A DNA stretch of 54,660 bases from Clostridiales bacterium (GTDB lineage Bacteria > Bacillota > Clostridia > Lachnospirales > WRAX01). The notes under the pieces were generated by a model that made no database searches, had not been told where the DNA came from, and saw only the letters and a program-made list of their open reading frames with translations. Position numbers and translations under genes: made by a program. The DNA lies in the NCBI GenBank assembly GCA_031277225.1, contig JAITMQ010000134.1, forward strand, positions 1 through 54,660, given 5' to 3'. Positions 35,665 to 37,230 of the stretch are shown here, in pieces. Position 1 is the first letter of the stretch; each line of letters begins with the position of its first letter.

Positions 35665-37230
35665 ATGGATACTAAGTTTATATTTGTTACAGGCGGCGTG
35701 GTTTCGGGTCTTGGTAAGGGCATAACCGCCGCCTCTTTAGGGCGTTTGTTGAAGGCGCGGGGCTATAGGGTTGCGAATCAGAAATTTGACCCCTATATTA
35801 ATATCGACCCCAGCATGATGTCGCCCATTCAACATGGCGAGATTTTTGTTACGGACGACGGCGCGGAATGTGATGCCGATGTGGGGCATTATGAGCGTTT
35901 TACAGACGAAAATTTGACAAAAAATTCCAATATCACGTCGGGGCGAATTTATTCGACCGTGCTTGAAAAAGAGCGGCGCGGCGACTATGAGGGGAAGACC
36001 GTGCAGGTAATTCCGCATATTACCGACCATATCAAGTTTTTAACCAAGCGTGTTGTGGCTGATTCCGCGCCCGATATTGTGATTACCGAAATTGGCGGCA
36101 CGGTCGGCGATATGGAAAGCGACCCCTTTATTGAGGCCATTCGCCAAATGGCCTTCGATTTGGGGCGGGAAAATGTGCTTTATGTGCATGTAACCCTGCT
36201 GCCATATTTGGAAAAGGGCGGCGAAATCAAGACAAAGCCGACACAGCATAGCGTGAAAGAACTGCTGTCTATGGGGATTCAGCCGGATATGATTGTTGTG
36301 CGAACTTCGCGCAAAATTGATTCGGATGTTAAGGCAAAAATTGCCTTATTTTGTAATGTTGCGACTGAATGTATAATCGAAAATGTAGACTGCGATAATC
36401 TCTATGAAGTGCCGTTGCTTTTGGAGCGGGAAAATTTTGCGCAGGTTGCCCTGCGGAAATTGGGGCTTGCAGAGCGCAGGCCCGAACTTTCCGACTGGGA
36501 GGCGATTTTGGCGCGTGCGGATGCCGCGCGCGGCGAGATGACAATTTCGCTTGTGGGAAAATATACCATTTTGCCCGATGCCTATCTTTCGCTGATTGAA
36601 GCCATAAAGGCGGCCTCTTTTGAGGTTGGCACAAAGGTCAATATCAATTGGATTGCCGCCGAAGATGTCGAAAAAAATGCGCAAATTTTGGAAAATTCCG
36701 CCGGGATTATCATAGGCGGCGGATTTGGGCCGCGCGGCAGCGAAGGAAAGATTCTGGCGGCGAAATTTGCCCGTGAAAACGGGATTCCCTGTCTTGGGCT
36801 TGGAATGGGAATGCAGGCCATGGCGATTGATTTTGCGCGAAATGTGATGGGTCTTCGTGGCGCAAATTCCGTTGAATTCGACGAAGCTACGCAGTATCCG
36901 ATTTTTTTAAACCCCGGAAGCGGAATGCGTAAGGGCGCGCATCCCTGCAATTTGGCCGAAAACAGCCTAATTCACAAAATTTACAATAAAACCCACATTC
37001 ATGAGCGGCATCGCCACCGCTATGAATTCAATTGCGCCTATATCCTGCAATTTGAGGGGGCGGGCATGACAATAAGCGGCATTGGCGACGGCCCAAAAGC
37101 CGAAATTATCGAGCTAAACGGCCATCCCTTCTACCTAGGAACACTTTTCCACCCCCAATTCAAATCCCGCCCAAACCGCCCGCATCCCATTTTCGTGCGC
37201 TTTTTGGAAGCTTGTGAAGGTAGCGAATAG
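35665..37230 (+). CDS. pyrG: CTP synthase homolog with a substituted glutaminase catalytic triad
   Basis: [38 protein letters not shown] and [12 protein letters not shown] are conserved. In the GATase domain LGICLGMQ is replaced by LGLGMGMQ (Gly at codon 380, nt 36802-36804) and FHPEF by FHPQF (Gln498, nt 37156-37158). Confidence 0.85.

Follow-up and report, generated by a model that had tools for sequence, protein, structure and literature searches.

Where does the nitrogen of CTP come from in an organism whose CTP synthase has lost the catalytic cysteine of its glutaminase half? The question is raised by the gene pyrG at positions 35665..37230 (forward strand) of contig JAITMQ010000134.1, assembly GCA_031277225.1, of a Clostridiales bacterium; the window is the whole stretch of 54,660 nucleotides of this contig that was analysed. 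The genome to which it belongs (G000) is a metagenome-assembled genome (MAG) of 2.16 Mb in 177 contigs, 94.6% complete. PyrG is treated as a universally glutamine-dependent and GTP-activated enzyme. Full-text searches of the literature found no natural Cys-less or ammonia-dependent PyrG, and the only natural ammonia-only CTP synthase found there is the non-homologous PyrJ. A preliminary description of the locus, made from the window alone, left two alternatives for the gene product, either a CTP synthase that uses ammonia only or a paralog without catalytic function. On the whole, our analysis of sequences, together with the analogy to mutant enzymes of other species, makes it likely that the gene encodes a CTP synthase which depends obligately on NH3 and retains its glutaminase half as a pseudo-enzyme domain. 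The first alternative is favoured by a sole pyrG, the absence of PyrJ, the kept synthase residues and the signs of purifying selection, and the second is rejected, as the gene is the single pyrG of a 94.6%-complete genome.

All sequence and fold criteria place the window protein in the PyrG family. Its open reading frame (ORF) is intact and encodes 521 amino acids (aa), with matches in both Pfam and NCBIfam. The synthase (amidoligase) domain, residues 4-268 at 35674..36468, matches CTP_synth_N (PF06418) with E 1.3e-122 and 408.7 bits (cut-off 26.1), and the class I glutamine amidotransferase (GATase) domain, residues 303-515 at 36571..37209, matches PF00117 with E 5.9e-28 and 98.3 bits, both on the forward strand. 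In NCBIfam the protein scores 739 bits against a cut-off of 308 for NF003792 (PRK05380) and 712 bits against 463 for TIGR00337. The synthase half was already said to be well conserved, and the conservation extends to its working residues. With E. coli PyrG as the numbering ruler, the active-site residues K18, K40, D72, E140, K187/K189, Q192 and K223 and the CTP-feedback residues D147/E149 are all present, while the equivalents of P54/H57/V60, which form the NH3 gate, read P, H and I.

The second domain is predicted with confidence to keep the GATase fold, without a working catalytic triad. In HMMER alignments with E. coli PyrG structures, the window motif LGLGMGMQ falls on LGICLGMQ and FHPQF falls on FHPEF. 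The codon gga at 36802..36804 (+) accordingly gives Gly380 at the position of the E. coli nucleophile Cys379, Met381 follows it in place of the oxyanion-hole residue Leu380, and the former triad segment His-Pro-Glu at 37150..37158 (+) reads His496-Pro497-Gln498 (cac ccc caa, with cac at 37150-37152 and caa at 37156-37158). Both replacements and the retention of His496 had been noticed in the preliminary description, and they are borne out by the codons and the alignment. The same holds for the shortened loop near GGTxRLG, which turns out to be a deletion of the L13 'wing' together with a degenerate GTP-activation motif (36904..36936, +; residue roles after PMC9138612). The alignment breaks there at residues 414/418, with about 22 E. 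coli residues before GGTMRLG absent from the window protein and a gap of about 9 residues relative to clostridial relatives. The motif itself reads GSGMRKG instead of GGTMRLG, by which Thr438 is lost and Arg440 is kept, and in addition Thr51 is replaced by Met. The loss of the GTP-activation apparatus is partial, since the L11 lid, Arg356, Arg440, Arg468 and Arg470 are kept. Finally, two cysteines are new: Cys376 (tgt, 36790..36792, +), which is specific to the clade described below and stands in place of Tyr/Phe375, and Cys69 (tgt, 35869..35871, +), which replaces a near-invariant Thr69 and adjoins Glu68.

Homologues were searched for in 40 relative genomes and among 5.8 billion proteins. The result is a sharp split, in which the sequences 60-82% identical to the window protein carry Gly at the nucleophile position, and identity does not exceed 60% in the others, all of which are canonical. 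For a residue census we set 38 non-identical Gly379 sequences against 111 Cys379 sequences. Because Cys379, His515 and Glu517 are present in all 111 canonical relatives, the substitutions are not ordinary variation. The preliminary description had proposed to look for a clade sharing the substitutions and for a canonical pyrG elsewhere in the genome. In a maximum-likelihood tree the 38 Cys-less sequences do form one clade, supported by an SH-aLRT (Shimodaira-Hasegawa-like approximate likelihood ratio test) value of 95. The MAGs that carry them are labelled Defluviitaleaceae by NCBI and represent at least six groups of genus rank within a single family. As to a canonical copy, PF06418 has a single match in the window genome, the Cys-less gene itself. 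PF08903, the domain of PyrJ, is absent from the window genome and from every other genome with a Cys-less PyrG. With a single pyrG and no PyrJ, the Cys-less protein is therefore the only candidate CTP synthase of the window genome. Within the family, PF08903 is found only in G006 (C43:6963-7955), the sole member without pyrG, so that one family holds canonical PyrG, Cys-less PyrG and PyrJ.

A second pyrG in the family MAG G019 (contig C116) was considered as evidence for paralogy and set aside, as it is canonical and groups with another family, f8 (SH-aLRT 99); the contig is probably mis-binned. On C116 of this 78% complete MAG, a full-length guaA match ends at 1980 and pyrG starts at 2557, the two being about 1.5 kb apart.

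Across the 38 Cys-less sequences, the synthase and CTP-feedback residues listed above are kept without exception (38/38 each), and so nearly is the gate, with P54 in 37, H57 in 38, and V (25) or I (13) at position 60. In the GATase half, C379G is found in 38/38, L380M in 36/38 and E517Q in 34/38, while His515 is kept in 10 sequences and the oxyanion-hole Gly351 in 24. In this group Thr51 of the GTP cleft is replaced, the GGT of GG(T/S)(M/L)RLG is lost and the L13 wing is deleted. The deepest branches show how this state was reached. In G001, whose genome is 100% complete and which branches off first, T69C and C379G are the sole changes. Y375C, L380M, H314A and the deletion of the wing appear in the next branch, P0043, and G50S and E517Q come in with the core of the clade, after which His515 is lost in several sub-lineages, and P0009, a nested member, still reads HPE. 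On this tree the triad decays stepwise, first Cys, then Glu to Gln, then His. Cys69 has been fixed since the first branching, along with the change of Cys379 to Gly, and Cys376 is invariant in 30/30 aligned members.

Another state of the enzyme is seen in the PyrG of G002 (C12:30474-32033), which lies on a long branch. Here the triad is kept (GICYGMQ, HPEF), but the L13 wing has been lost independently and T51R, L380Y and T438N are present; a glutaminase that works without GTP is one possible reading, and an enzyme en route to glutaminase loss is another.

What such changes would do to the activity can be judged from published work, which is reviewed in PMC9138612 and covers CTP synthase (CTPS) of E. 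coli and L. lactis. The G352P variant of E. coli CTPS and the enzyme with Cys379 alkylated by 6-diazo-5-oxo-norleucine (DON) lose the glutamine-dependent activity and keep the NH3-dependent one (PMC9138612). The L13 wing contacts GTP and is required for GTP activation, and the replacements R429A (a wing residue), T431V and R433A affect nothing but this activation, i.e. the GTP-activated use of glutamine (PMC9138612). Exogenous NH3 enters by an opening in the GTP cleft (PMC9138612). Because the synthase half and the gate are intact in the window protein while the nucleophile and the wing are gone, an NH3-only, GTP-independent CTP synthase is to be expected, for which neither use of glutamine nor activation by GTP is predicted. 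In the mechanism that we propose, the N-terminal synthase domain would phosphorylate UTP with ATP and then aminate the product as in the canonical enzyme, the C-terminal domain would no longer hydrolyse glutamine, and the nitrogen would come from free NH3. Two ways to the Pro54/His57/Val60 gate would be open to it, alone or together: the emptied glutamine pocket, and the vestibule opening that is normally plugged by GTP. The dead domain is probably kept as the mouth and wall of the ammonia tunnel and as a part of the oligomer architecture.

Compared with known systems, the window protein is alike to canonical PyrG (EC 6.3.4.2; E. coli 1S1M/5TKV, T. thermophilus 1VCO) in its two-domain fold, with about 50% identity and TM-scores of 0.77-0.83 to CTPS structures (Foldseek, predicted model), and in the synthase, CTP-feedback and NH3-gate residues. 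It differs in the features that define the glutamine-hydrolysing class (triad, oxyanion hole and GTP-activation wing), through the loss of Cys, of the triad Glu (of His also in most relatives), of Leu380 and of the wing and GGT motif. It would be expected to work like the glutaminase-blocked laboratory forms of E. coli CTPS (G352P, DON-Cys379), in which NH3-dependent synthesis survives, and R429A shows that the wing serves GTP-activated glutamine use only. Those are laboratory variants, whereas the state of the clade is natural, fixed, and accompanied by what would be compensatory changes, L380M, Y375C, T69C and H314A. A conceptual parallel is vertebrate mitochondrial carbamoyl phosphate synthetase CPS1, a class I amidotransferase which has lost its catalytic Cys and uses free ammonia, and in which the dead glutaminase-like domain has a structural or regulatory role. 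The window PyrG likewise keeps a Cys-less glutaminase-like domain, but the synthase and the lineage are different, and the regulation of CPS1 by N-acetylglutamate has no counterpart shown for it. The other ammonia-only CTP synthase, PyrJ (DUF1846/UPF0371, S. pneumoniae Spd_0310), is not homologous to PyrG (bioRxiv 10.1101/2024.09.24.614635). Its chemistry would be the same as that predicted here, UTP, ATP and NH3 giving CTP without glutamine, while its fold is different, a P-loop ATPase with a cytidine-deaminase-like part.

The genome as a whole was surveyed with phmmer, by comparing E. coli proteins with its ORFs in all six frames. In the 94.6%-complete window genome, CarA, CarB, PyrC, PyrF, GlmS, AmtB, GlnK and GltB were not found. 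Present are UraA-Upp for uracil salvage, Cmk, a small cytidine deaminase, a PRK/Udk-family protein, NagB, carbamate kinase and two transcarbamylase-like genes. NagB without GlmS, and carbamate kinase without CarA/CarB, suggest ammonia-based routes to glucosamine-6-phosphate and carbamoyl phosphate. The pyrG domain is the only PF00117 match in the genome, and the GMP synthase GuaA, which lies outside the window (contig C101:2905-4128), has no GATase domain by Pfam. This protein of 408 aa matches only the ATP-PPase and GMP_synt_C parts. In the alignment some 110 internal residues are missing, the Cys and His-Glu regions among them, but the first 65 or so residues and the last helix are kept. The core-deleted GuaA is common to nine genomes of the family, four others carrying the ATP-pyrophosphatase part only, and it is probably an NH3-dependent GMP synthase. 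A genome-wide abandonment of glutamine was also considered and is ruled out, since the nucleophiles are intact in PurF (EECGVFG), an AsnB-like protein (MCGF) and PurL (GICNGFQ / HSE), and the genome has a type III glutamine synthetase. In the family-wide search, the ammonium transporter (Amt) family is found in three members only, all with canonical PyrG, and it is absent from all genomes with Cys-less PyrG. The Amt-bearing members have 4-6 class I GATases, compared with 1-2 in the Cys-less-PyrG genomes when C116 of G019 is set aside. The same features are seen in G014 (94% complete, 50 contigs), which has one Cys-less pyrG, the core-deleted GuaA, no Amt and no PyrJ, and in which the family-wide domain search finds no class I GATase besides the Cys-less pyrG. 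Overall, the gene contents point to a selective glutaminase loss in two NH3-competent nucleotide amidotransferases, in a lineage that appears to need no ammonium uptake system.

The ammonium ion has a pKa of 9.25, and above it most ammonia is the membrane-permeant free base, the true substrate of CTPS. The habitat of the clade is of interest in this respect. A Cys-less PyrG 75% identical to the window protein (P0004) is located on a contig of IMG metagenome 3300002552, which was sampled from compartment P1 of the hindgut of Cornitermes sp., a litter-feeding termite (PMC7024585, Table S1). Of the 67 Defluviitaleaceae MAGs obtained from higher termites in the same study, 79% stem from P1, a compartment described as highly alkaline (PMC7024585; alkalinity also in PMC4660790 and PMC8784593). 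Ammonia accumulates in the posterior hindgut of soil feeders (PMC8784593). An alkaline P1 with abundant NH3 is a plausible selective setting, and the loss of the glutaminase may have been made possible in a termite-gut lineage because unprotonated NH3 should be plentiful there.

The dead domain itself is under purifying selection. At 75-80% identity of the N-domain, the C-domain identity is 56.5% among Cys-less pairs and 62.9% among canonical pairs; for equal N-domain divergence the dead domain has thus diverged little more than a working one. The ratio of nonsynonymous to synonymous substitution rates (dN/dS), quoted for the least diverged pair because synonymous sites are saturated in most pairs, reaches 0.20 in the C-domain, against 0.09 in the N-domain. 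AlphaFold2, given the clade alignment, models the GATase domain with a predicted local distance difference test (pLDDT) score of about 90, and taken alone the domain fits the glutaminase domain of human CTPS2 with a root mean square deviation of 2.1 A. Of some 80 C-domain positions that show no variation among canonical sequences, about 48 stay invariant in the Cys-less clade.

Several points weigh against an NH3-dependent enzyme with a passively retained domain. The glutamine-pocket residues G352, F353, E403 and R470 stay invariant in the clade, and so do E68, K297, Y298, R356, R440 and R468 of the GTP cleft and the L11 lid (G354, R356, G357, G360), while the new invariant Cys69 and Cys376 find no account in it. 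Glutamine is still made and used, as PurF, PurL, AsnB and the type III glutamine synthetase show. The absences come from a MAG of 177 contigs at 94.6% completeness, the termite-gut habitat of the window MAG is taken from its relatives, as an exact look-up of the window protein in public contigs gave no record, and the NH3-dependent activity is drawn solely from mutants of other species. A simple passive relic would not predict the invariance of pocket and cleft, and a ligand could still be bound there. Since the pocket, most of the GTP cleft and the two new cysteines are invariant, the dead domain may have been repurposed as a ligand-sensing or gating module, which would bind glutamine and/or GTP without hydrolysis, gate the access of NH3 and act as an allosteric sensor of nitrogen or purine status; we hold this reading only tentatively and consider it rather unlikely.

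A further possibility is that the protein makes no CTP at all and is a non-catalytic or regulatory PyrG-like protein, serving in filaments or nucleotide sensing, while CTP is obtained from cytidine through uridine/cytidine kinase, Cmk and NDP kinase. The genome gives it some ground, as the de novo pyrimidine route is incomplete without CarA/CarB, PyrC and PyrF, pyrimidines are already salvaged via UraA-Upp, and the PRK/uridine-kinase-family protein is present together with Cmk and the cytidine deaminase; cytidine salvage could indeed supply some CTP, which is one more point against the main reading. The cytidine deaminase cuts the other way too, for it would turn salvaged cytidine into uridine. 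Moreover, the ATP-, UTP- and Mg-binding, CTP-feedback and gate residues are invariant or conservatively replaced in the 38 sequences, which fits continued catalysis rather than a scaffold, the N-domain evolves with dN/dS of 0.02-0.09, and the pyrG-less G006 carries PyrJ, suggesting that the family needs a CTP synthase. We regard the non-catalytic reading as improbable.

Supply of ammonia in trans, by a separate glutaminase docked on the dead domain, could account for the retained domain, and the L11 lid and the cleft residues could reflect an interface with a protein or a ligand. There is no other class I GATase domain in the window genome to fill this role, and the gene-neighbour comparison across the clade finds the upstream SLH gene as the sole conserved neighbour of pyrG, with none downstream. 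A GATase-like protein of about 225-250 aa occurs in genera g5, g2 and g9 and not in g1, g15, g12 and g8, which leaves a docked partner very improbable.

The preliminary description had also mentioned the nearby Cys376 as a residue that might rescue glutamine use. A nucleophile relocated to Cys376, four residues upstream of the lost Cys, could be read from its replacement of Tyr/Phe, its invariance and the kept pocket (G352, F353, E403, R470). Such a rescue is nevertheless hardly credible, because His515 is lost in 28/38 and Glu517 in 34/38, leaving no general base or acid, Gly351 of the oxyanion hole is variable (lost in 14/38) and Leu380 is changed to Met. In addition, from the class I GATase fold the -4 position would lie within the beta-strand before the nucleophile elbow, an estimated 10 A or more away, and G001 has the change of Cys to Gly without Cys376. 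As for a sequencing or assembly artefact or a decaying pseudogene, which a fragmented MAG might invite, it is effectively refuted, because 38 sequences taken from separate assemblies made independently (JGI, ENA, NCBI, Logan) share the substitutions, the frame is intact, dN/dS is far below 1 and the fold is confidently predicted.

If the window gene does encode an obligately NH3-dependent CTP synthase, the synthase domain of CTPS can sustain growth on free NH3 in nature, and the decay of a class I amidotransferase site could be followed residue by residue (Cys, Glu, His) along with its compensatory changes. The clade would also provide a natural separation-of-function variant for the NH3 tunnel, for the entry port of exogenous NH3 and for the role of the GTP cleft, and it would link the architecture of an enzyme to the chemistry of a habitat, the alkaline, ammonia-rich compartments of the termite gut. 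In that case the automated label 'CTP synthase (glutamine hydrolysing)' misstates the nitrogen metabolism of these uncultured symbionts.

The surroundings of pyrG in the window may be described briefly. The gene upstream (34051..35649, +) is an ORF for an SLH-domain cell-wall protein, a neighbour of pyrG rather than a functional part of the system. Its position close in front of pyrG had been called odd in the preliminary description. This view does not hold, because the neighbourhood is conserved, the SLH gene being kept upstream of pyrG in genera g1, g5 and g15, and a promoter-like site lies within the 3' end of the SLH gene, so that the tight spacing is not anomalous. The site is a sigma-70-like promoter candidate, TTGATA-17-TATAAT at 35605..35633 (+), supported by its 11/12 match to the consensus; it lies inside the terminal 45 nt of the SLH gene, some 30 nt ahead of the ATG of pyrG. 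A G-rich ribosome-binding site follows at about 35653-35659. Downstream, an ORF of 118 aa that is not conserved in relatives (37214-37570, +) starts 17 nt before the stop codon of pyrG, and a gene of 227 aa that overlaps pyrG in g15 is absent from the window. Small proteins of about 225-250 aa with partial PF00117 matches, of which the window genome has none, are encoded in G004:C8, G018:C61, G015:C83, G001:C5, G008:C414 and G002:C13; a possible identity for them is that of GatD-type amidotransferases, as in the MurT/GatD system.

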